The position numbers were made by a program, and so were the translations under genes. Positions 5,262 to 59,010 of a stretch of DNA of 64,000 nt are shown piece after piece. This DNA comes from Anaerolineae bacterium (GTDB lineage: Bacteria > Chloroflexota > Anaerolineae > DTLA01). Numbering within the stretch: position 1 is the first letter of the stretch; every line of letters begins with the position of its first letter. Location of the stretch: positions 1,208 to 65,207 of the forward strand of contig DAOTVT010000071.1 in assembly GCA_034436295.1 (NCBI GenBank), in the 5' to 3' direction. The notes below the pieces were generated by a model. The model was not told where the DNA came from, made no database searches, and saw only the letters and a program-made list of their open reading frames with translations.

Positions 5262-5662
5262 GCGACCCCTCCGAGAAAGCCTTTAGCCGTTGGCCGATAG
5301 CCTCTAGCGAGCAGCGGTCAGCGGTCGGCGGACACGGGATTGCCTCGGCGTGCCGACGGCAGACCGCAGTATGCGAACCGCTGCAACAAAAAACTCCCGC
5401 CCCATAGGGACGAGAGCGATCTCCCGCGGTACCACCCTGCTTGACAGGCGAGCCTGTCCACTCTGTGGGTACGTGTTCATACCCCCGCCGCTGTAACGGG
5501 CGCGCCCCGGCCAAGTCTACTGGGAGTTGCCTCCGTTCGGTTGGCGGCTCCGGAAGGATTTTCGTCGGGGTTCGCGCATCCGGCTCCCACCGGCCCCGGA
5601 CTCGCTGGGCGTCTCCGCCCGACTACTCGTTTCCATCACAGCCTTTGGTTGGCGTATTCGGT
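5262..5662 (-). promoter_or_regulatory. T-box riboswitch leader of ileS
   Basis: On the minus-strand transcript: stem-III hairpin GACAGGCUCGCCUGUC followed by the canonical T-box sequence AAGCAGGGUGGUACCGCGGGAG (plus-strand reverse complement at about 5422..5443). This is followed by a 10-bp hairpin (CUCUCGUCCC/GGGGCGGGAG) and a U6 tract ending about 30 nt before the ileS ATG. A candidate Ile specifier (AUC) lies within GAAAAUCC; specifier assignment is tentative. Confidence 0.7.
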
Positions 5663-9299: not shown

Positions 9300-9420
9300 T
9301 CCTCGCGCTCCAGCGGTCAGCGGTCAGCGATCAGCAGTCAGTCCCGATCGCTGCCCGCTGCCCGCTGATTGCTGTTCGCTGTTTGCTGATTGCTGATCGC
9401 TGTTTGCTGACTGCTCGCCA
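9300..9420. repeat. inverted array of heptanucleotide repeats (long imperfect hairpin)
   Basis: GGTCAGC/GATCAGC heptamers on the left arm and their complements CTGATTG/CTGATCG/CTGACTG on the right arm. Same family as 51285..51470 and 56826..56975. Confidence 0.7.
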
Positions 9421-28555: not shown

Positions 28556-31156
28556 ATGTCCACACCCGTTCGGCGACAGTATCTCGCCATCAAGAAACGA
28601 TTTCCGAATACCATCGTCTTCTTCCGCCTGGGCGACTTCTACGAGACGTTTGACGAAGACGCGAAGACCGTCGCCCAGGTCTGCGACATCGTGCTGACCT
28701 CGCGGCCTGTGGGCAAAGACCAGCGCGTGCCCCTGGCGGGCGTCCCGTATCACGCGGTGGATGGCTATCTGGCGAAACTGATCGGGGCCGGCTACAAGGT
28801 CGCCATCGTGGAGCAGGTGAGCGACCCCAAGGAGAGCAAGGGGCTGGTGGCGCGCGAAGTCGTGCGGGTGGTAACGCCCGGCACCGTGGTGGAGCCGACG
28901 CTGCTGGACGAGCGGCGCAACAACTTCCTGGCGGCGCTGACGCTGGAGGACCGGCGCGCCGGCCTCGCCTACGTGGACATCACAACGGGCGAGTTTGCGA
29001 CGACGCAATTCTCGGGCGACGACGCGGCGCAGGAGGCGCTGCAAGAACTGGCGCGCCTGCAGCCCGCCGAATGCCTCATCCCCGCCCGCCCCGACGCGCC
29101 CGAGCGGGCGGCCCTTCGCGGCGTGGAGTGCCCCATAACGGAATGGGACGCCTGGCGCTTTGACGTGCAGACGGCGCGGGAGGCGCTGCTCCAGCATTTC
29201 GGCGTGGGCACGCTGGCCGGCTTTGGCTGCGAGGGACTCCCCCAGGCCATCCGCGCCGCGGGCGCCATCGTCCAGTACCTGCAGGAAACGCAGAAGGCGG
29301 CGTTGGCGCATCTGGACTCCCTGACGACCTACAGCACCTCGCGCTTTATGACGCTGGACGCTTCCACGCGGCGCAATCTGGAACTGGTGGCGACGATCCG
29401 CACCGGCGCGGTGAAGGGGTCGCTGCTGGGCGTGCTGGACCTGACGCGCACGTCCATGGGCGGGCGCATGTTGCGGCAGTGGCTGCTTCAGCCGCTGGTG
29501 GAGAAGGCGGCCATTGAGCGGCGACTGGACGCGGTGGAGGCGCTGTATAACGCCACGCCGCAGCGCATGAAGATTCGCGAACTGCTGGGCGGGGTGGGGG
29601 ATTTGGAGCGGCTGACCAACCGTCTGGCGCAGGGGATTGCCACGCCGCGCGACTTGCTGGGCCTGGCGCGGGCGCTGCGCCGCGTGCCCGACGTGGCCGC
29701 CGCGCTGGATGCGATTCTGGCGGGGTTGCCCGGCGGCCACCCGCTGGCGGCGCTGCGCGACAGGCTCAACCCATGCCAGGCCGAGGCCGACCTCATTGAG
29801 GCCGCCATCGCCGAGGACGCGCCGGCCACGCTGGCCAACGGCGGGGTGATTCGCCCGGGCTACTCCGACGAGTTGGACGCCATCGCCAGGGCCTCGCGGG
29901 ACGCCAAGCAGTGGGTCGCGGGGCTGGAGCAGCGCGAGCGCCAGCGCACCGGCATCAAGTCGCTGAAGGTGGGCTACAACAAGGTCTTCGGCTACTATAT
30001 TGAGGTCAGCAAGGCCAACATGGACCGCGTGCCGCCCGACTACGTGCGCAAGCAGACGCTGGTCAACGGCGAGCGGTTCATCACGCCGGAGTTGAAGGAG
30101 TACGAGTCGCTCATCCTGAACGCGCAGGAGCGGCGGCTGGAGTTGGAGACGCGCCTGTACAAGGAACTGTGCGAGCGGCTGGCGACGGCGCGGGGGCGCA
30201 TGCTGGACACCGGGCGCGCCCTGGCCGAGTTGGACGTGCTGGCGTCGCTGGCCGAGGTGGCGGTTCGCAACCGCTACACGCGCCCCGAAGTCGCCGAGGA
30301 CGGCATCATTGACATCCGCGAAGGCCGGCATCCCGTCGTGGAACTCACCCAGAAGGACGAGCCGTTCGTGCCCAACGACGTGCGGCTGGTCCCTGGCGAA
30401 GGCGAGATCATCATCCTGACCGGCCCCAACATGGCGGGCAAGAGCACGTTTTTGCGGCAGGTGGCGCTGATTGTGCTCATGGCGCAGGTGGGGAGTTTCG
30501 TCCCCGCCCAGCGCGCGCACATCGGCATCGTGGACCGCATCTTCACGCGCATCGGCGCGCAGGACGAGATCGCCGCCGGCCAGTCCACGTTCATGGTGGA
30601 GATGGTGGAGGTGGCGAACATCCTGCACCACGCCACGTCGGCCAGCCTGCTCATTCTGGACGAGGTGGGGCGCGGCACCAGCACCTATGATGGCATCTCC
30701 ATCGCGTGGGCGGTGGTGGAGCACATCCACAATCACCCGCGCCTGCGCGCCAAGACGCTGTTCGCGACGCACTACCACGAGTTGACGGACCTGGCGGGGA
30801 CGCTGCCGCGGGTGCGGAATTTCAGCATGGCGGTGGCCGAGGAGGGCGACCGGGTCATCTTCCTGCGCAAGGTCATCCCGGGCGGGGCCGACCGCAGTTA
30901 CGGTATCCACGTGGCGCAACTGGCCGGGTTGCCGAAGTCGGTGATCCATCGGGCCGAGGAGTTGCTGCGCGAGTTGGAGTCGGGGCAGAACGGGGCGGCG
31001 ATCAAGCCCAGGGCGCCGCGGGCGAAGCAGTTGAGTTTTCTCACGGAGTCGGACCCGGTGCTGCAGGAGTTGCGCGACCTGGACATCAGCGCCATGACGC
31101 CGCTGGAGGCCATCAACAAGTTGTACGAATTCCAGCGGAGGGTGGGGAAGGGGTAG
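28556..31156 (+). CDS. mutS: DNA mismatch repair protein MutS
   Basis: Mismatch-binding domain (FYETFDEDA), connector/core/clamp domains, Walker A GPNMAGKST, ABC signature, and 866 aa length. Confidence 0.95.
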   Translation: MSTPVRRQYLAIKKRFPNTIVFFRLGDFYETFDEDAKTVAQVCDIVLTSRPVGKDQRVPLAGVPYHAVDGYLAKLIGAGYKVAIVEQVSDPKESKGLVAREVVRVVTPGTVVEPTLLDERRNNFLAALTLEDRRAGLAYVDITTGEFATTQFSGDDAAQEALQELARLQPAECLIPARPDAPERAALRGVECPITEWDAWRFDVQTAREALLQHFGVGTLAGFGCEGLPQAIRAAGAIVQYLQETQKAALAHLDSLTTYSTSRFMTLDASTRRNLELVATIRTGAVKGSLLGVLDLTRTSMGGRMLRQWLLQPLVEKAAIERRLDAVEALYNATPQRMKIRELLGGVGDLERLTNRLAQGIATPRDLLGLARALRRVPDVAAALDAILAGLPGGHPLAALRDRLNPCQAEADLIEAAIAEDAPATLANGGVIRPGYSDELDAIARASRDAKQWVAGLEQRERQRTGIKSLKVGYNKVFGYYIEVSKANMDRVPPDYVRKQTLVNGERFITPELKEYESLILNAQERRLELETRLYKELCERLATARGRMLDTGRALAELDVLASLAEVAVRNRYTRPEVAEDGIIDIREGRHPVVELTQKDEPFVPNDVRLVPGEGEIIILTGPNMAGKSTFLRQVALIVLMAQVGSFVPAQRAHIGIVDRIFTRIGAQDEIAAGQSTFMVEMVEVANILHHATSASLLILDEVGRGTSTYDGISIAWAVVEHIHNHPRLRAKTLFATHYHELTDLAGTLPRVRNFSMAVAEEGDRVIFLRKVIPGGADRSYGIHVAQLAGLPKSVIHRAEELLRELESGQNGAAIKPRAPRAKQLSFLTESDPVLQELRDLDISAMTPLEAINKLYEFQRRVGKG

Positions 31157-31175
31157 GACGCCCCCGGACTGACTA

Positions 31176-31528
31176 GAATTCTCACACAAAGACACAAAGA
31201 CACGGGGAAAAACCTTTGTGTCTTGGTGCCTTTGTGAGGGGTTTTCATTCTCACACAAAGACACAAAGACACGGAGGAAAGAACTTTGTGTCTCCGTGTC
31301 TTTGTGTGCGGATTGATTCTCACACAAAGACACAAAGACACGGAGAAAAACCTTTGTGTCTCCGTGTCTTTGTGTGCGGATTGATTCTCACACAAAGACA
31401 CGAAGACACGGAGGAAAAAACTCTGTGTCTCCGTGTCTTTGTGTGCGGTTTCATTCTCACACAAAGACACAAAGACACGGAGAGAATTCTTTGTGTCTTG
31501 GTGTCTCTGTGTGCGGATTGATTCTCAC
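31176..31528. repeat. tandem array (~5 units) of ~68-bp hairpin repeats
   Basis: Unit GATTCTCACACAAAGACACAAAGACACGGAG-AAAAACC-TTTGTGTCTCCGTGTCTTTGTGTGCGGATT. Each unit is a ~25-bp near-perfect palindrome. Confidence 0.9.
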
Positions 31529-31535
31529 AGGCTGT

Positions 31536-31919
31536 CTATTCTATCGTGCCATTGATGATCCGGTAGATGCCGCCCTTCATTGTGGCTGCGCCAAAGTTGA
31601 GCAGGTAGCCCAATTTCATGCCTGTCAGTTTCAGGTAAGTGAGCACCTGCTTCTGGTGGGCTGGGTGAACCGTCTCAACTGACTTGAGTTCAACGAGCAC
31701 CTTGTCTTCCACCACGAGATCGGCGCGGAAACCCTCATCAAATGTCATCCCGTCGTACTCTATGGGAATCCCGACCTGGCGCTGGACTCGCAGCCCTGCT
31801 TTGCGCAACTCGTGCGCGAGCAGCGTTTCATATACGCTCTCTAGCAACCCAGGTCCCAGCGCCACGTGCAGGCGTACCGCGGAGTCCACGATGATCTTGC
31901 CGATTTCATTTTCGTTCAT
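31536..31919 (-). CDS. GxxExxY family protein (PD-(D/E)XK-like)
   Basis: MNENEIGKIIVDSAVRLHVALGPGLLESVYETLLAHEL carries the GxxExxY motif (GLLESVY) and matches the family in length (~127 aa). The N-terminal extension of the track ORF is repeat-derived. Confidence 0.8.
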   Translation of the reverse strand: MNENEIGKIIVDSAVRLHVALGPGLLESVYETLLAHELRKAGLRVQRQVGIPIEYDGMTFDEGFRADLVVEDKVLVELKSVETVHPAHQKQVLTYLKLTGMKLGYLLNFGAATMKGGIYRIINGTIE

Positions 31920-31931
31920 AGCGGCATGCGC

Positions 31932-32205
31932 TTTCTCACACAGAGGCACAAAGGCACAGGGGAAAACCCTTTGTGTCTTGGTGTCTTTGTGTGCGGATTG
32001 ATTCTCACACGAAGACACAAAGACACAGAGAAAATTCTTTGTGTCTTGGTGTCTTTGTGTGCGGATTGATTCTCACACAGAGGCACAAAGGCACAGGGAA
32101 AACCCCTTTGTGTCTTGGTGTCTTTGTGTGCGGATTGATTCTCACACCAAGACACAAAGACACGGAGAAAATTCTTTGTGTCTCCGTGTCTTTGTGTGGC
32201 CTCCC
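31932..32205. repeat. second tandem array (~4 units) of the same ~68-bp hairpin repeat
   Basis: Same unit family as 31176..31528 with minor variants (CACAGAGGCACAAAGGCACAGGG). Confidence 0.9.
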
Positions 32206-32208
32206 GCT

Positions 32209-33390
32209 CTACGCCTTGAGCCGGAGGAAGCGGCGCTTGCCCACCTGGAGAATGGCCTCGCGCGGCTCCACCAGGCGGTCCACGCTGTCCACCGTGGCAT
32301 CGTCCAGCCGCACGCCGCCTTGCTGGATGAGCCGCCGCGCCTCGCTCTTGCTGCCGGCCACCCCGGCCTGCACCATCAGGTCCACGATGTTGATTCCGCC
32401 CGCGGGCACGGCGAACTCCGGCATGTCCGTCGGCAGTTCGCGGCGCTGGAACACGCGCACGAATTCCTCCTCGGCGCGGGCGGCGGCCTCCGGCGAGTGG
32501 ATGTAGCCCACTACCTCGCGGGCCAGGCGCATCTTCACGTCGCGCGGGTTGACCGTCCCCGCGCGCAGGTCGGTGGCGATCTGCTCCAGTTCCTCGTCCG
32601 GGATGTCCGTAACCAGCGTCAGGTAGTCCATCAGCATCTCGTCGGAGATGGACATGAGTTTGCCGTACATCTGATCGGGCGGCATGCTCAGGTCCACGGT
32701 GTTGCCGAAGGTCTTGCTCATCTTGCGGCCGTCGGTGCCGGGGAGCAGGGGCACCAGGAACACATCCTGGGGCCGCTGGCCGAGCATGGCCTGGAGTTCG
32801 CGCCCGGCCAGGATGTTGAACTTCTGGTCGGTGCCCCCGAACTCCACGTCGGCCTCAATGGCGATGGAATCGTAGGCCTGGAGAAGCGGGTACATGAGTT
32901 CCATGAGCGTCAGCGGCGACCCGCTCTCCCAGCGCTTGCGGAACGTCTCGTGGGCCATCATCTGGGCCAGCGTGAAGCGGCTGGTGAGGTTGAACACGTC
33001 GGCCAGGGTGAACTTGCCAAACCACTCGCTCTGCCAGCGCACCTCGGTGCGGCGACGATCCACGATTTTGAAGAACTGATCCATGTAGGTCTGGGCGTTG
33101 GTTCGCACCTCTTGGGGCGTGAGCATGGTGCGCGACTCGTCGCGGCCCGATGGGTCGCCGATTTGGGCCGTCCAGTCGCCGACGATGAGGATGACCTGAT
33201 GCCCCAGGTCCTGGAGTTGGCGGAGTTTGCGCAGGCCCACGGCGTGGCCGATGTGCAGGTCGGGCTTGCTGGGGTCAAACCCCTGCTTCAGGCGCAGCGG
33301 CCTGCCCGAGCGCAGTTTCTGCAGCAGTTCCTCCTTGACGATGATTTCTGCGACGCCGCGTGTGAGGATCCATTCCAGATTGTCGCGCAT
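32209..33390 (-). CDS. tyrS: tyrosine--tRNA ligase
   Basis: HIGH motif (PDLHIGHAVG), KMSKT motif, and a C-terminal S4 domain. Start placed at MRDNLEWIL. Confidence 0.9.
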   Translation of the reverse strand: MRDNLEWILTRGVAEIIVKEELLQKLRSGRPLRLKQGFDPSKPDLHIGHAVGLRKLRQLQDLGHQVILIVGDWTAQIGDPSGRDESRTMLTPQEVRTNAQTYMDQFFKIVDRRRTEVRWQSEWFGKFTLADVFNLTSRFTLAQMMAHETFRKRWESGSPLTLMELMYPLLQAYDSIAIEADVEFGGTDQKFNILAGRELQAMLGQRPQDVFLVPLLPGTDGRKMSKTFGNTVDLSMPPDQMYGKLMSISDEMLMDYLTLVTDIPDEELEQIATDLRAGTVNPRDVKMRLAREVVGYIHSPEAAARAEEEFVRVFQRRELPTDMPEFAVPAGGINIVDLMVQAGVAGSKSEARRLIQQGGVRLDDATVDSVDRLVEPREAILQVGKRRFLRLKA

Positions 33391-33574
33391 GGTTCCATCT
33401 CCTCGCCAGGGTTGGGTTCGGCAGGACGGCAACGCGCCAGCCCGATGGCTTCATTATAACGACGGGCGCGGGTTTGAGCAAGAGGCCGTCCTCCGCGCTT
33501 GTGATCTGTTCGCGGGTGCGGTATAATACGTATGGTCGGAATTGTCCTTTGCATTGAAACGTCGGGAGGAGAGC

Positions 33575-41659: not shown

Positions 41660-42065
41660 CCCGCCGCGTATGGATTCGGTTCCGCCTCGTGTTGGCGTGC
41701 CCCCTGGCTTCGGCGGCTACGGAAAGCCGCCCCACGTGTCTACTGTAACCGCGAATCCACGCGAATCCACGCGAATGGAGAACAGCCCCTATCCTCCATT
41801 CGTGTGAATTCGTGTTATTCGTGGATAGCGTTTAGCGAGCGTGGGGCGGGTTCCCATACGTGCCCCCTTCGTCCGGCGGCTATGGAGAGCCGCCCTACGT
41901 GTCTACTGTAACCGCGAATCCACGCGAATCCACGCGAATGGAGAACAGCCCCTATTCGTGTGAATTCGTGTTATTCGTGGATAGCGTTTAGCGAGCGTGG
42001 GGCGGGTTCCCATACGTGCCCCCTTCGTCCGGCGGCTACGGAAAGCCGCCCTACGTGTTTGGGTC
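41660..42065. repeat. tandemly duplicated composite repeat (families E, C, D; two ~185-bp copies)
   Basis: CCCCCTGGCTTCGGCGGCTACGGAAAGCCGCCCCACGTGTCTACTGTAACCGCGAATCCACGCGAATCCACGCGAATGGAGAACAGCCCCTAT...ATTCGTGTTATTCGTGGATAGCGTTTAGCGAGCGTGGGGCGGGTTCCCATACGTGCC is repeated twice. Confidence 0.85.
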
Positions 42066-50434: not shown

Positions 50435-51268
50435 CTAAGGCACCTCGGTGGGGGTGAAGTTCGTGATGACCAGGGCGCGCTCCAGGCTGCCGAAGTCCAC
50501 CGTCGGCTGCACCTCGGCCTCTTGGTACAGCCCCACCTCGTCGCGGATGACTTTGGACACCTGCCCGATGATGAGCGCCTTGGGGAACATGCCTCCCAGG
50601 CCCGACGTGATGACCACATCGCCCTCGGCCACGCTGCTGTCGTGGGGGATGCGGGTCATGACGAGTTTGCCGCCGGGGCGTCCCTCCACCAGGCCGGTAA
50701 CGCGGTTGCGCTGGATCATGGCGTTCACCGAACTGCGCGCGTCCACGATGAGCAGCACGCGGCACGCGTTGGGGTACACGTCCAGCACGCGGCCCACCAG
50801 CCCGCGCTCGGTTACGACGGGCATGTTGCGGCGGATGCCGTCGCGCGCGCCCACGTTCAGCACCAGGTCGGGGAACAGGTTGGACGCGCCGCTGCCGACG
50901 ACGTAGCCCACCACCTCTGCGCCCTTGAACTGATAGGCCGGATACGTCTGGGTGAAGTTGAGCAGCGCCCGCAGGTGCTCAATCTCCTTGTTAGCCTCTT
51001 CCAACTGGAGCAGTTGCACCGACAGGCGGTCCACCTGGGCGCGCAGGTCGCGGTTCTCCTCGCGCAGCGCCACCATGTCGCGCCCGCCCTGTATCCAGTC
51101 GCTCACGGTGCGGCTCAGGCGGGAGAACTGATCCTGCACCGGCGCGAGCAGCGTCGTCGCCAGGTCGCGCACGGGGCGAAACAGGCCCGTCTGGGAGACC
51201 AGAAAGGCCACGATGAGGACGATGATGGCGACGATAAGGGCAGTGGGTGTGTCCGTCCGCGAATGCAT
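50435..51268 (-). CDS. mreC: rod shape-determining protein MreC
   Basis: N-terminal TM, coiled coil (LREENRDLRAQVDRLSVQLLQLEE) and beta-rich MreC domains. Confidence 0.9.
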   Translation of the reverse strand: MHSRTDTPTALIVAIIVLIVAFLVSQTGLFRPVRDLATTLLAPVQDQFSRLSRTVSDWIQGGRDMVALREENRDLRAQVDRLSVQLLQLEEANKEIEHLRALLNFTQTYPAYQFKGAEVVGYVVGSGASNLFPDLVLNVGARDGIRRNMPVVTERGLVGRVLDVYPNACRVLLIVDARSSVNAMIQRNRVTGLVEGRPGGKLVMTRIPHDSSVAEGDVVITSGLGGMFPKALIIGQVSKVIRDEVGLYQEAEVQPTVDFGSLERALVITNFTPTEVP

Positions 51269-51284: not shown

Positions 51285-51470
51285 GCTAGTAGCCTTTAGC
51301 CTACAGCCTTTAGCCTATAGCCTTTGGCCTTGGTGCGATGGCACTGCCCAACGCCTCCCAACCCAGGCGAATGGCCCGCTGCCAGAGGCTAAAGGCTATA
51401 GGCCAATGGCTAATGGCTACAGGCTAATGGCTAGCGGCTAACGGCTAACGGCCAAACACCAATGGTTTCT
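51285..51470. repeat. inverted arrays of heptanucleotide repeats forming a long hairpin between mreC and mreB
   Basis: Left arm TAGCCTT/TAGCCTA heptamers; right arm GGCTAAA/GGCTATA/GGCTAAT/GGCTAAC heptamers (reverse complements), in total ~20 heptads. Confidence 0.8.
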
Positions 51471-52529
51471 CTACCGCTTTCTTGGCCGGCGGCTATCGGC
51501 CAGGACTTTGCGCAAGGAATCCAGGTTTTCCAGCACCTTGCCGGCCCCCAGCGCCACGCACCACATGGGGTTTTCGGCCACATAGACGCGCATGTGGGTT
51601 TCCTCGCTCAGGCGCGTGGCCATTCCTTGCAGCAGCGCGCCGCCCCCGGCCAGCGCGATGCCGTTCTCCATCAGGTCGGCCACCAACTCGGGCGGGGTGT
51701 CGTCCAGCGCCTCTTTCACGGTGTTGACGATGGTGGCGACGGACCCCGCGAGGGCCTCGCGAATCTCAATGCTGGAGACTTCCACCTCTTCGGGGAGGCC
51801 CGTAACCAGGTTGCGGCCCCGCAGGGTCATGGTCTTCTCTTCGGGCAGCGGGTATGCCGATCCGATGGCGATCTTCACCCGCTCGGCCATGCGCTCGCCG
51901 ATGAGGAGGTTGTACTTCTGGCGCGCGTAGTTGATGATGTCCTCGTCCATCTCGTCGCCGGCGACGCGGATGGAGCGGCTGACCACGACGCCGCCCAGCG
52001 AGAGCACCGCCACCTCGGTGGTGCCGCCGCCGATGTCCACGATCATGCTGCCGACGGACTCGGTGATGGGGAGGCCCGCGCCGATGGCCGCCGCCTTGGG
52101 TTCTTCAATGAGGAACGCCTCGCGCGCGCCCGCGCTCAGGCAGGCGTCGGACACGGCGCGCTTTTCCACCTCGGTAACGCCGCTGGGAATTCCCACGACG
52201 ACGCGCGGCCGCGGCACGCTGAAGACCATCTTCTCGTGGGCCTTGCGGATGAAGTAGTGAAGCATCCGCTCGGTAACGACGAAATCGGAGATGACGCCGT
52301 CGCGCAGGGGGCGAATGGCGATGATGTTGGCGGGCGTGCGCCCGACCATGTCCTTCGCCTCGCTGCCGATGGCCAGCACCTGCTTCGTTCTCTTGTCCAC
52401 AGCCACCCAGGACGGCTCGTTGATGATGATGCCCTTGCCTTTGACGTAAACCAGCGTGTTGGCCGTTCCCAGGTCAATGCCGATGTCCAGGGAGAATAGC
52501 CCCAGGAAGGCGGCGATTGGGTTGAACAT
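51471..52529 (-). CDS. mreB: rod shape-determining protein MreB
   Basis: Actin-fold motifs (IGIDLGTANTLVY, GVVVSRSIRVAGDEMDE, ALAGGGALL); start placed at MFNPIAAFLG. Confidence 0.95.
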   Translation of the reverse strand: MFNPIAAFLGLFSLDIGIDLGTANTLVYVKGKGIIINEPSWVAVDKRTKQVLAIGSEAKDMVGRTPANIIAIRPLRDGVISDFVVTERMLHYFIRKAHEKMVFSVPRPRVVVGIPSGVTEVEKRAVSDACLSAGAREAFLIEEPKAAAIGAGLPITESVGSMIVDIGGGTTEVAVLSLGGVVVSRSIRVAGDEMDEDIINYARQKYNLLIGERMAERVKIAIGSAYPLPEEKTMTLRGRNLVTGLPEEVEVSSIEIREALAGSVATIVNTVKEALDDTPPELVADLMENGIALAGGGALLQGMATRLSEETHMRVYVAENPMWCVALGAGKVLENLDSLRKVLADSRRPRKR

Positions 52530-52710
52530 GGACCTCTCCTCGTGCTTGGTGTGGCTTGGAGCCGCGCCCATTATAGCACAGCGGGTGAAATTGGCAATTT
52601 GCAACGCCGGAGGGCGCGCCTGGACGCGGTGCAAGAGCGGGTTGGCGCTTTTCAGGAATCGTGGTATAGTGCGGTGAGAATGCAGTTCATGGCTAGGGAA
52701 GGAGGCTGCA

Positions 52711-56825: not shown

Positions 56826-56975
56826 GGTTAGCGGTCAGCGAGCAGCAGTCAGCCGTCAGCGGTCTGCGATCAGCGAGCGACGGATGCCGCTAACGGCTAA
56901 CGGCTAACGGCTGACCGCTAAAGGCTAGAGGCTAACGGCTGACGGCTAAAGGCCAACGGCCAACGGCTATCATCA
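56826..56975. repeat. inverted arrays of heptanucleotide repeats (long hairpin) between ribozyme and glmS start
   Basis: Left arm GGTCAGC-type heptamers; right arm (GGCTAAC)n with variants GGCTGAC/GGCTAAA/GGCCAAC, ~11 heptads. Confidence 0.8.
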
Positions 56976-56989
56976 CTGGAGGAACGCTT

Positions 56990-58825
56990 ATGTGCGGGAT
57001 TGTGGGATACATCGGCCCCCGCGACGCGACGCAAATCATCATGGACGGCCTGCGCCGTCTGGAGTACCGCGGCTACGACTCGGCCGGCATCGCCGTGCTA
57101 CAGGAGGGGCGCCTGGTCGTCCGCCGCGACGCCGGCAAACTGGCCAACCTCGCCGCCATCCTGGAGCGCGAGCCGGTGCACGGCCCCGTCGGCATCGGCC
57201 ACACGCGCTGGGCCACCCACGGCCGGCCCAGCCAGCGCAACGCCCATCCCCACACCGATTGCACGGGCGAGATCGTGGTCATCCACAACGGCATCGTGGA
57301 GAACTTCATGGCGTTGAAGGCGGAACTGCAGGCCGAAGGGCACCGATTCCGCTCGGATACCGACACGGAAGTAATCGTGCATCTTGTGGAGAAGTACTAC
57401 CAGGGCGACATCGCCGAGGCGGCGCGGGCGGCCTTCCAGCGGCTGCGCGGCGCCCACGCCATTGTCGTCATGACGTCGCGCGAACCCGACCGACTTGTGG
57501 CGACGCGCATCGGCAACGCGGGAGGCGTAACGGTGGGCCTGGGCGACGACGAGATGTTCCTGGCCTCGGATATCCCTGCGATTCTGGAGCACACGCGCCG
57601 CATGGTCTTTCTGGAAGACCGCGAGATGGCCGTCGTAACGCGCAGCGGCGCGCAGTACTACCGCCTGACGGGCGAGCCGGTGTCCAAGACGCCCCACACC
57701 GTGCCCTACGATCCGGTGGCGGCGGCCAAGGGCGAGTACAAGCACTTTATGCAGAAGGAAATCTACGAGCAGCCCCGCGCCGTAACCGACACCATTCGCG
57801 GGCGCATGGACTTTGAGACCGGCGAGGCGATCCTGGCGGACGTAGGCATCGGGGAGGACGAGGCGCGCGCCCTGGATCGGGTCGTCATCGTGGCGTGCGG
57901 CACGTCGGCCTACGCGGGCCTGGTGGGCAAGTTCATGCTGGAATCGCTGGCGGGCCTGCCGGTGGAGGTGGACTACGGCTCCGAGTTTCGCTACCGCGAC
58001 CCTCACATCACCCCGCGGACGCTGGTGGTGGCCATCACCCAGTCGGGCGAGACGGTGGACACGCTGGCGGCCATGGACGAGGCGCGGCGCAAGGGGGCCA
58101 GGATCGTGAGCATCGTCAACGCGGTGGGGAGCATGGCAGCGCGCGTGTCCGACGGCGTTATCTACATGCAGGCAGGCCCCGAAATCGGCGTGGCATCCAC
58201 TAAGGCGTTCACCACATCGCTGGTGGATTTGTACCTGCTGGGCACGTACCTGGGGCAGAAGCGCGGGCGGCTGGACAGGGAGCGGTCGCTGGCGCTGGCC
58301 CAGGATTTGGCCGAACTGCCCAATCTGATGGGGAGCGTGCTGGCCAACGGCCACGAGTACGAGGCGCTGGCGCAGTTGTACTACGAGAAGGCCGACTTCC
58401 TGTACCTGGGGCGGGGCATCAACTACCCCATCGCCCTAGAGGGCGCGCTGAAACTCAAGGAAATCTCGTACATCCACGCCGAAGGCTATCCGGCGGGCGA
58501 GATGAAGCATGGTCCCATCGCCCTGATTGACGACCACATGCCGGTCATGATCATCGCCATCCGCGACCGCGTGTACGAGAAGATCATGGGCAACGTGGAG
58601 GAGGTCAAGGCGCGCAACGGGATCGTGCTGGCGCTGGGCACGCAGGGCGACGCGCACCTGGCCGAGAAGGCCGATCATGTGATTTATGTGCCCCCGCTGC
58701 CGGAACTCCTGTCGCCGGTGGTTACGGTCATCCCGCTGCAACTGTTCGCGTACCACATGGCGGTGCGCCGCGGGTGCGATGTGGATCAGCCGCGCAACCT
58801 GGCGAAGAGCGTAACGGTGGAGTGA
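56990..58825 (+). CDS. glmS: glutamine--fructose-6-phosphate aminotransferase (isomerizing)
   Basis: N-terminal MCGIVGY Ntn-amidotransferase start, two SIS domains, 611 aa. Confidence 0.95.
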   Translation: MCGIVGYIGPRDATQIIMDGLRRLEYRGYDSAGIAVLQEGRLVVRRDAGKLANLAAILEREPVHGPVGIGHTRWATHGRPSQRNAHPHTDCTGEIVVIHNGIVENFMALKAELQAEGHRFRSDTDTEVIVHLVEKYYQGDIAEAARAAFQRLRGAHAIVVMTSREPDRLVATRIGNAGGVTVGLGDDEMFLASDIPAILEHTRRMVFLEDREMAVVTRSGAQYYRLTGEPVSKTPHTVPYDPVAAAKGEYKHFMQKEIYEQPRAVTDTIRGRMDFETGEAILADVGIGEDEARALDRVVIVACGTSAYAGLVGKFMLESLAGLPVEVDYGSEFRYRDPHITPRTLVVAITQSGETVDTLAAMDEARRKGARIVSIVNAVGSMAARVSDGVIYMQAGPEIGVASTKAFTTSLVDLYLLGTYLGQKRGRLDRERSLALAQDLAELPNLMGSVLANGHEYEALAQLYYEKADFLYLGRGINYPIALEGALKLKEISYIHAEGYPAGEMKHGPIALIDDHMPVMIIAIRDRVYEKIMGNVEEVKARNGIVLALGTQGDAHLAEKADHVIYVPPLPELLSPVVTVIPLQLFAYHMAVRRGCDVDQPRNLAKSVTVE

Positions 58826-58835
58826 TGCGCCCATC

Positions 58836-59010
58836 GGGTGGGGCCCCTCACCCTGGCCCTCTCCCCGCAAGGCGGGGCGAGGGGATTGCCCCCCTCACCC
58901 TAGCCCTCTCCCCGCGAGCGGGGCGAGGGGATTGCCCCCCTCACCCTAGCCCTCTCCCCGCAAGGTGGGGCGAGGGGATTGCACTACGGTTCTGGCCGCG
59001 AGCGGGGCGA
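58836..59010. repeat. four tandem units of dispersed repeat family A
   Basis: CCCCTCACCCTNGCCCTCTCCCCGCNAGNGGGGCGAGGGGATTGC x4, same family as 5697..5800. Confidence 0.85.

Follow-up and report, generated by a model that had tools for sequence, protein, structure and literature searches.

The DNA analyzed here is a 64,000-nucleotide window from the genome of an Anaerolineae bacterium of the Chloroflexota (assembly GCA_034436295.1, contig DAOTVT010000071.1, positions 1,208 to 65,207 of the forward strand), and the locus of interest is a small nuclease-type gene of the GxxExxY family that is bracketed by two arrays of tandem hairpin repeats in the spacer between mutS and tyrS. These two genes are transcribed toward each other, mutS from the plus strand and tyrS from the minus strand, and enclose the GxxExxY locus. 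The features are listed below in window coordinates, with open reading frame abbreviated as ORF.

28556-31156, plus strand: mutS, an 866-aa ORF, with MutS_I-V Pfam domains on identical metagenome contigs.
31178-31529, no strand: array A, 5.1 tandem copies of a 69-bp hairpin unit with 89% matches (Tandem Repeats Finder).
31522-31529 and 31933-31940: 8-bp direct repeat TTCTCACA bounding the cassette, read from the sequence (TGTGAGAA in gene orientation).
31530-31932, minus strand: unique 403-bp cassette, made up of 6 nt, the GxxExxY ORF, and a 13-nt leader AGCGCATGCCGCT ahead of the ATG.
31536-31919, minus strand: GxxExxY / PDDEXK_3 gene, 127 aa, with profile matches to TIGR04256 and PF13366.
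31933-32198, no strand: array B, 3.9 tandem copies of a 68-bp hairpin unit with 86% matches (Tandem Repeats Finder).
32209-33432 according to the ORF list, minus strand: tyrS, with tRNA-synt_1b and SYY_C-terminal Pfam domains on identical contigs; a gene caller placed the start at about 33390 rather than 33432.

The first hairpin unit of array A follows the mutS stop codon after 21 nt. Units of this array start at about 31178, 31247, 31316, 31384, and 31453, and a truncated unit, ATTCTCACA, ends at 31529; those of array B, which lies directly after the tyrS stop codon, start at about 31933, 32001, 32069, and 32138. Because the GxxExxY gene is on the minus strand, array B with its 3.9 copies is upstream of the gene and array A with its 5.1 copies is downstream. 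The 403-bp cassette is placed exactly at a unit boundary inside the hairpin array. No other copy of the hairpin unit was found elsewhere in the window, and the pattern CRCNRAGNCRCNRAG occurs 33 times in the 64 kb, in every case inside 31185-32196, where shuffled sequences gave an expectation of 0.43 and a maximum of 3.

The repeat unit is 68-69 bp long, and all units form hairpins with 21-26 pairs at about -23 to -41 kcal/mol (-27 to -41 kcal/mol for array A, on both strands). In the orientation of the gene, a linker (TCAATCCG) is followed by the 5' arm (CACACAAAGACACGGAGACACAAAG), which a loop of about 7 nt separates from the 3' arm (CTCCGTGTCTTTGTGTCTTTGTGTGAGAA); the units abut, and the linkers between hairpins are 8-14 nt long and identical throughout. 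Each arm is composed of three tandem 8-nt sub-units (CACAAAGA, CACGGAG, and similar) that share the core CRCNRAG. The initial annotation of this DNA had described a unit of 66-68 bp forming a palindrome with a stem of about 25 bp; the hairpin was recovered, and its arms proved to be runs of three sub-units rather than the halves of one single 25-bp palindrome. Its estimate of about five and about four flanking copies agrees with the 5.1 and 3.9 copies counted here, and the family of spurious ORFs that it attributed to the repeats (MSLCENQSAHKDTETQ...) is present in the ORF list. Homologs and gene callers begin the GxxExxY protein at MNENEIG, which rules out as the gene a longer ORF of 160 aa whose N-terminus is encoded by the repeats.

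That a single GxxExxY gene lies between the convergent mutS and tyrS, as the same annotation had stated, was confirmed by profile scores well above the cutoffs. The 127-aa product matched TIGR04256 (GxxExxY) with 140.7 bits against a cutoff of 35 over residues 7-122, as a full-length family member, and PF13366 (PDDEXK_3) with 138.6 bits against a cutoff of 22. The motif that gives the family its name, G24-L-L-E27-S-V-Y30, is invariant in both family alignments, as are G22-P-G-L, E27, Y30-E31, D67, E77-x-K79, and Q91, while Y95 is nearly invariant; Q91-xxx-Y95 forms a conserved QxxxY motif. Judged from these residues, the catalytic D...ExK and QxxxY motifs are intact and would constitute a Cas4/RecB-like PD-(D/E)XK active site. 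An AlphaFold2 model of the protein was confident, with a predicted local distance difference test (pLDDT) score of 93.5, and shows a predicted PD-(D/E)XK core fold (alpha-beta-beta-beta-alpha-beta) of Cas4/RecB-like type; Cas4 was the closest structural neighbor, and the nearest folds were Cas4 and the nuclease domains of restriction enzymes and HsdR. The iron-sulfur (Fe-S) cysteines of Cas4 are absent from the GxxExxY protein in the alignments, no solved structure was found to match by sequence, and neither profile searches nor fold comparison gave a match to an HUH family.

Regular spacing of palindromic repeats, together with Cas4 as closest structural neighbor, raises the idea of a CRISPR-like or integron cassette array. 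This was excluded and is assigned practically no probability: the arrays hold no unique spacers, as had been pointed out in the initial annotation when it set CRISPR aside, their 8-14-nt linkers are constant, the 20-kb neighborhood contains no cas gene or integrase, and the Cas4 Fe-S cysteines are missing.

The GxxExxY family comprises 25,142 clusters at 50% identity (E<=1e-3) and is thus very large, and its function is listed as 'Unknown' in a survey of PD-(D/E)XK proteins (PMC3424549). Its distribution is patchy and multi-copy, with tandem duplications. Homologs 74-77% identical to the protein of the window were found in Chloroflexota, Verrucomicrobiota, Planctomycetota, a Brocadiia metagenome-assembled genome (MAG), and Deltaproteobacteria, and such identity across phyla, on the sequences compared, would imply horizontal spread, very strong constraint, or both. 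Several family representatives (P0255, P0257, P0260, P0261, and others) are 275-295 aa long and contain the GxxExxY domain twice in full, probably as a result of read-through fusion between tandem cassettes of the kind seen in locus L153, where the order is hairpin, gene, hairpin, gene.

The association of the gene with its arms was followed in 80 diverse metagenomic GxxExxY loci, picked solely by protein similarity (53-99% identity to the protein of the window). Strict arms were defined as at least two tandem units of C[AG]CN[AG]AGN or its reverse complement within 120 nt of the ORF, and relaxed arms allowed a 1-3-nt spacer and one substitution. Strict arms were present at 62 of the 80 loci. 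Under the relaxed definition, 77 of the 80 had an arm on at least one side, 64 of the 70 in which both flanks could be evaluated had arms on both sides, and the median gap between arm and ORF was 20 nt per side. Arm density was about 6.6 per kb in the flanks and 0.08 per kb at more than 600 bp from the gene, so that the flanks stand about 80 times above background. An occurrence of the unit only here, apart from GxxExxY genes elsewhere, would have spoken against the reading of the initial annotation by its own account; this did not prove to be the case, given the arm motif at 77 of 80 loci and an exact 19-mer of the arm beside such genes in three taxa (see below).

Two layouts were distinguished. 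In the commoner one, a CAC-type arm precedes the ATG and a GTG-type arm follows the stop codon, so that the ORF takes the place of the 'loop' in a split hairpin. The second, to which the locus of the window belongs, has the ORF between two complete hairpins, at the center of an everted inverted repeat. Scored by the nearest arms among the 80 loci, 24 have the first layout and 9 the second. Of the 64 arm pairs that enclose a GxxExxY ORF, 38 run from C-arm to G-arm and 16 from G-arm to C-arm, which places the ORF at the center of a palindrome in 54 of 64. No other protein family was found to recur within arm pairs or beside the motif. The generality of the arms is independently evidenced by the proteins themselves, since gene callers often run the ORF into the arms and thereby add repeat-encoded N- or C-terminal extensions (HKDTKA, SHAKPQSRE, SPRLRVN) to unrelated family representatives. 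At the nucleotide level, the unrelated loci L172 and L179 are 81.5% identical over the ORF and about 50 bp on each side and at no other point, and by this comparison the unit of homology is the arms plus the ORF.

Arms with a different core were seen as well. A GxxExxY gene on a viral contig of IMG/VR (locus L213, 2840-3570) carries arms of 9-nt units with the core CGCAGAT (CGCAGATAA) in place of CRCNRAG, and runs of CGCAGAT are found near CACAAAG arms in loci L009 and L019. These arms suggest further specificity variants.

Copies of the hairpin that carry no gene were surveyed by searching one genome per species (596 Gb) for exact matches to the 19-mer CACAAAGACACAAAGACAC. There were at least 120 such loci, where about 4 would be expected by chance, and they came from at least 14 phyla, including Chloroflexota, Cyanobacteriota, Bacteroidota, Planctomycetota, Acidobacteriota, Alpha-, Gamma-, and Deltaproteobacteria, Chlamydiota, Latescibacterota, Nitrospirota, Omnitrophota, and Synergistota. 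The context is nearly everywhere alike, namely a run of CACNAAGR-type octamers, a short loop, and the inverted run, and at least 39 of the 114 usable sites form complete hairpins with a strict partner arm within 110 nt. A GxxExxY gene lies no more than 135 bp away in 7 of the 120 matches listed (Bacteroidota, Alphaproteobacteria, and Chloroflexota), and some other MAGs carry several of the loci each, which indicates dispersal. Among the complete genomes in which arms occur are those of Desulfonema magnum (NZ_CP061800.1), Nostoc sp. NIES-4103 (AP018288.1), and Chloroflexus/Roseiflexus.

The arms fall into two discrete types. Counted per locus, 14 are CAC-only, 41 are CGC-only, and 1 is mixed, and the type is uncorrelated with the guanine-plus-cytosine content of the locus (r=0.01). 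The nearest protein neighbor shares the arm type in 59 of 70 cases (permutation p<0.0005), and arm type thus tracks protein phylogeny.

The main alternative is a role at the level of RNA, in which the transcribed arms would pair around the ORF and the stem would be processed (e.g., by RNase III), stabilize the mRNA, or hide ribosome-binding purine tracts, with gene-less hairpins as stabilizers or processing sites; such an element could still be selfish, its repeats serving RNA rather than DNA recognition. Although we regard this as unlikely, several observations are in its favor. The upstream and downstream flanks of the genes are strongly complementary to each other (-40 to -90 kcal/mol), a promoter would not fit between arm and ATG given the 20-nt median distance of the arms from the start and stop codons, and no sigma-70-like promoter was found in 31000-32400. 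The arm units contain the Shine-Dalgarno-like tracts AAGG and GGAG, as read from the sequence. An ORF-containing intervening sequence in the 23S rRNA of Coxiella, described as a selfish element (PMC4990558), provides a precedent.

A strand preference within array B points in the same direction. Its units 1-3 (31933-32137) fold at -35 to -39 kcal/mol as plus-strand RNA and at -23 to -31 kcal/mol as minus-strand RNA, a preference of 8-15 kcal/mol that arises because every arm mismatch is a G-U pair when read on the plus strand but an A-C mismatch on the minus strand. No such asymmetry is seen in array A. Since unit 3 is nearly a copy of unit 1, few independent events lie behind this preference, and it does not extend to the family: the sense strand folded better in 42 loci and the antisense strand in 25, G-U pairs numbered 315 versus 328, and there was no strand bias. 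Strand-specific selection on RNA was accordingly rejected.

Pairing between arms was examined in 94 non-redundant short-loop hairpins. Core positions 1-3, 6, and 7 were paired in 92-97% and position 5 in 86%, while position 4, the sole freely variable position of the unit, was Watson-Crick paired in 50%, with 132 pairs observed against 117 expected if the arms were independent. This absence of covariation implies that the complementarity results from two inverted arrays of one core and not from selection for a perfect helix, and that the arms behave as arrays of a recognition motif. An RNA helix would not require a discrete arm type that follows the protein clade. Rfam at gathering thresholds returned no family at the locus, and a permissive search gave only sub-threshold matches to generic long hairpins (miRNA precursors). 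Conserved 23S rRNA motifs were found in none of the sampled GxxExxY loci, and the locus of the window lies between protein-coding genes. The suggestion of a structured-RNA array, which had been offered in the initial annotation beside that of a mobile cassette, was therefore not upheld, given the lack of an Rfam match, of covariation at position 4, and of a family-wide G-U strand bias.

A consensus scan called terminator-like sites in the arrays; their T-rich 'tails' are the 3' arm itself, with no separate U-tract. A close relative of the gene (78% identical; locus L217, 2920-3545, and likewise L216 and L218-L225) is co-directional within an mnh/mrp Na+/H+ antiporter operon, between mnhA/B and mnhC. 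This copy has nearly identical CAC-type arms, with one complete hairpin upstream and two downstream, and the stop codons of the gene upstream fall inside a hairpin loop. The hairpins are unlikely to be terminators because the operon genes downstream of this copy must be transcribed through three of them; on these grounds (no U-tract apart from the T-rich arm, and hairpins inside the mnh operon), rho-independent termination was rejected.

The same evidence bears on the explanation that the association is incidental, the gene having merely landed among low-complexity repeats made by slippage or among generic terminators. The terminator-like calls would speak for it, as would other sub-repeat hairpins in the window that are built of different k-mers (9356-9415, 41696-42058, 51290-51456, and 56826-56969). 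The calls, however, derive from the T-rich arm, and three hairpins stand within the mnh operon of the 78%-identical copy. Arms are about 80 times denser beside GxxExxY genes than away from them and are present at 77 of 80 loci, the core recurs in at least 14 phyla, and the arm type co-segregates with the protein. An incidental association was excluded as very improbable.

Variation between strains was seen on nine metagenome contigs that carry the protein of the window. The gene is always between tyrS and mutS, and the cassette junctions, including the 8-bp direct repeat, are invariant across the nine strain variants. The number of hairpin units changes, from 2 to 4 in the array on the tyrS side (B) and from 2 to 6 in that on the mutS side (A), which indicates that the arrays are dynamic and expand and contract. 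The number of cassettes varies in another lineage, where, in one orthologous spacer between a kinase gene and a CheY gene, L147 and L154 have one cassette each and L150 has two, together with extra hairpins and a toxin-antitoxin pair.

The toxin-antitoxin pair of L150 (1455-2285; Phd-like and PIN-like by sequence alone) lies between the two GxxExxY cassettes. It is enclosed by an inverted repeat of CGC-type arm units that is interrupted by the same 24-nt insert, CATGTCCTGAGCGAAGTCGAAGGG. In this single case, then, other cargo can occasionally sit within arms.

Four relatives whose MutS is 82-94% identical to that of the window were compared at the same position. The cassette and the repeats are absent beside mutS in all four; tyrS is not beside mutS in the three whose contigs extend past mutS, and the fourth contig stops 81 bp after it. 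The comparison of the mutS-tyrS interval in relatives that the initial annotation had called for thus showed that gene and repeats are missing beside mutS, and that tyrS is missing too in the three contigs that reach past mutS, so that an exact empty site was not obtained.

These distributions also weigh on the explanation that the protein is a domesticated, non-mobile DNA-binding or nuclease factor of the host, active in defense, repair, or the nucleoid, for which CRCNRAG arrays would be genomic sites and its own flanking arrays sites of autoregulation. The stable position in all sampled strains, the very strong conservation of the protein, the closest folds (Cas4 and the nuclease domains of restriction enzymes and HsdR), and the weak Cas4-like and defense-associated reverse transcriptase (DRT)-associated PDDEXK profile matches would be in keeping with such a factor. 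The PADLOC and PHROGs profiles, however, gave only marginal Cas4-like matches and the weak DRT-associated PDDEXK match; no defense system stood above noise, and a known defense system was rejected. The neighbors are housekeeping genes: within 10 kb on either side, all but two genes, which have no Pfam hit on record, belong to housekeeping families. The patchy, multi-copy distribution with tandem duplications and the absence from the site in relatives with 82-94% identical MutS argue further against a fixed host factor, and conservation of non-coding flanks across phyla at the nucleotide level is typical of mobile DNA and not of host regulons. This explanation is considered quite improbable.

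Taken at the level of the locus, we judge the chances to be even that it represents one copy of a compact, selfish palindromic element that is found across bacterial phyla. The full element would be about 480 bp long and consist of an arm of about 24 nt, a spacer of about 20 nt, the gene for the 127-aa nuclease, a second spacer of about 20 nt, and the inverted arm, each arm being made up of two to five tandem 8-9-nt units with the core CRCNRAG. The gene-less form (arm, short loop, arm) would correspond to the hairpin units, and it would spread and amplify in intergenic DNA in the manner of repetitive extragenic palindromic (REP) sequences and bacterial interspersed mosaic elements (BIMEs) or of miniature inverted-repeat transposable elements (MITEs). 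In the window, the gene would have come to lie at a unit boundary in a nine-unit tandem array of gene-less hairpins in the mutS-tyrS spacer, and the nine units would be either non-autonomous copies of the element or its targets. Inverted CRCNRAG arrays would be recognized by the GxxExxY protein, which would probably act as a dimer or a higher oligomer and would cut at or near the palindrome or a cruciform, after which repair or recombination by the host would copy or move the element. A gene at the center of the palindrome would split the two half-sites, as a homing endonuclease gene does with its own target. The observations themselves establish the architecture, its near-universality in the family, the joint inheritance of arm type and protein, the intact catalytic motifs, and the polymorphism in copy and cassette number, whereas binding, cleavage, and mobility are inferences.

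Extended to the whole family, the proposal is put forward tentatively and with somewhat less than even confidence: GxxExxY proteins may be the enzymes of an unrecognized class of palindromic mobile or homing elements, a PD-(D/E)XK counterpart of REP sequences and their REP-associated tyrosine transposases (RAYTs), with a CRCNRAG code in an 8-9-nt register and CAC and CGC specificities, so that the family and the gene-less hairpins would form one system. A protein that is only a nuclease fits cut-and-repair (homing or gene conversion) or a REP/RAYT-like route better than classical transposition, and the absence of a general target-site duplication agrees with either of these routes.

The suggestion of a mobile or selfish cassette made in the initial annotation is the best-supported reading of the locus, yet its mobility lacks a clean empty site, a general target-site duplication, and a recombinase, and the following points weigh against the proposed element. 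A 127-aa PD-(D/E)XK protein can cut DNA, but to our knowledge such a protein is not known for strand transfer, and we know of no PD-(D/E)XK-fold nuclease that reads an 8-9-bp tandem code. The GxxExxY gene is the sole ORF of the element, which encodes no DDE or other known transposase, and no transposase, integrase/recombinase, HUH protein, or Cas family was found among the Pfam hits of the genes called within 10 kb on either side. Identical proteins occur at one genomic position only (tyrS-mutS, or one mnh operon), and no recent jump was seen. In the nearest relatives, the gene order around mutS is disrupted, and for this reason neither a clean empty site nor a precise junction was recovered. 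A flanking direct repeat was found only at the locus of the window (8 bp) and at L131 (7 bp), and seven other loci of the same layout are without one, so there is no general target-site duplication. Among 2.9 million viral contigs there were only three GxxExxY hits, which were weak, and a phage origin was rejected for this reason. The co-segregation of arm type with protein could stem from plain linkage rather than from recognition.

A near-universal, sequence-specific link to one 7-nt core supplies a concrete and testable substrate for a very large family of unknown function. The proposed element would also account for conserved intergenic hairpins in Chloroflexota, Cyanobacteriota, Bacteroidota, Planctomycetota, Acidobacteriota, Proteobacteria, Chlamydiota, and others, for the frequent shortness of contigs with GxxExxY genes, which may reflect assembly breaks caused by the repeats, and for the spurious repeat-encoded N- and C-terminal extensions produced by gene callers. 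Should the protein indeed read a tandem code of 8-9 nt that comes in two discrete specificities, it might prove interesting as a module for programmable DNA recognition.

The genome is unusually rich in hairpins built of sub-repeats, which belong to several sequence families. At 41696-42058, a 156-bp unit is repeated 2.3 times with two hairpins per unit, one of which has arms of three tandem 10-mers (CGCGAATCCA, inverted TGAATTCGTG); the design with sub-repeat arms is that of the GxxExxY locus, the core CGCGAAT resembles CRCNRAG, and there is no GxxExxY gene near. Inverted heptamers, (TAGCCTT)x6 and (AGGCTAA)x10, surround a 54-bp spacer at 51290-51456, between the minus-strand ORFs 50435-51268 and 51471-52634, which, from their sequences, look like mreC and mreB. 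At 56826-56969, inverted heptamers (GGTCAGC, then GCTAACG/GCTGACC) lie between a glmS ribozyme (RF00234, 56521-56757) and the start codon at 56991 and hence within a riboswitch-controlled leader; the ORF that starts there with MCGIVGYIG is presumably glmS. Heptamers of GCTGATT are repeated 7.4 times at 9356-9415, and a 46-bp palindromic unit (CCCCTCACCCTAGCCCTCTCCCCGCAAGGCGGGGCGAGGGGATTGCC) is present in three copies at 58844-58982. A T-box leader on the minus strand at 5403-5648 (Rfam RF00230, 105 bits) is unrelated to the GxxExxY locus.

Full-text searches with the family names, accessions, and arm sequences found no published account of an association between GxxExxY genes and the arms, and a remark in database family annotations is possible. 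In its working, the element would be most like REP sequences and BIMEs with their RAYTs. In both cases short intergenic palindromes are dispersed (for the present hairpins, as seen in other MAGs) and in tandem arrays of variable copy number, one small nuclease-type gene is flanked by the same palindromes without a target-site duplication, and sites are found between convergent genes and inside operons. RAYTs, however, are HUH/Y1 enzymes related to the TnpA of IS200/IS605, whereas the GxxExxY protein belongs to the PD-(D/E)XK (Cas4/RecB-like) type, and the locus is not a REPtron as defined because its enzyme is not HUH. REP sequences are species-specific, whereas the CRCNRAG core is common to at least 14 phyla; the arms here consist of 8-9-nt tandem sub-repeats, and the gene is mostly inside a palindrome rather than between two REPs and is often multi-copy.

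Homing endonuclease genes, which may be free-standing or intron-borne and include PD-(D/E)XK types such as I-Ssp6803I, share a small nuclease gene in the middle of a symmetric sequence, where it would split the putative target, and a patchy distribution that seems to be horizontally acquired. They differ in that there is no intron or intein here and that the putative target is a palindrome repeated many times per genome, not one conserved host gene. Transposons with terminal inverted repeats and MITEs resemble the element in having a filled form (terminal inverted repeats plus gene) and a gene-less form, in breaking assemblies, and in varying in copy number; here, in contrast, a DDE transposase and a consistent target-site duplication are both lacking, and the gene-less copies are only about 55-70 bp long.

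In the 23S rRNA intervening sequences of Coxiella burnetii, a small ORF is likewise enclosed by inverted repeats, and the element is regarded as selfish (PMC4990558). The present locus is not in rRNA, and the ORF of the intervening sequences (S23p) is a different protein. Compared with nucleases of the Cas4/RecB family, the GxxExxY protein consists of a 127-aa core that stands alone; it has neither the Fe-S cluster cysteines nor a CRISPR or helicase partner. We take S23p to be a four-helix-bundle protein (PF05635). The short tandemly repeated repetitive (STRR) sequences of cyanobacteria are heptamer repeats, and they are alike in forming inverted intergenic arrays of short-period tandem repeats, similar heptamer arrays being present in the window; their period, however, is 7 nt, they have no CRCNRAG, and we know of no linkage of STRR sequences to a protein gene. 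Set beside these systems, the candidate element is apparently new as a selfish palindromic element that has a dedicated nuclease but employs an unexpected enzyme class and an unexpected repeat code.

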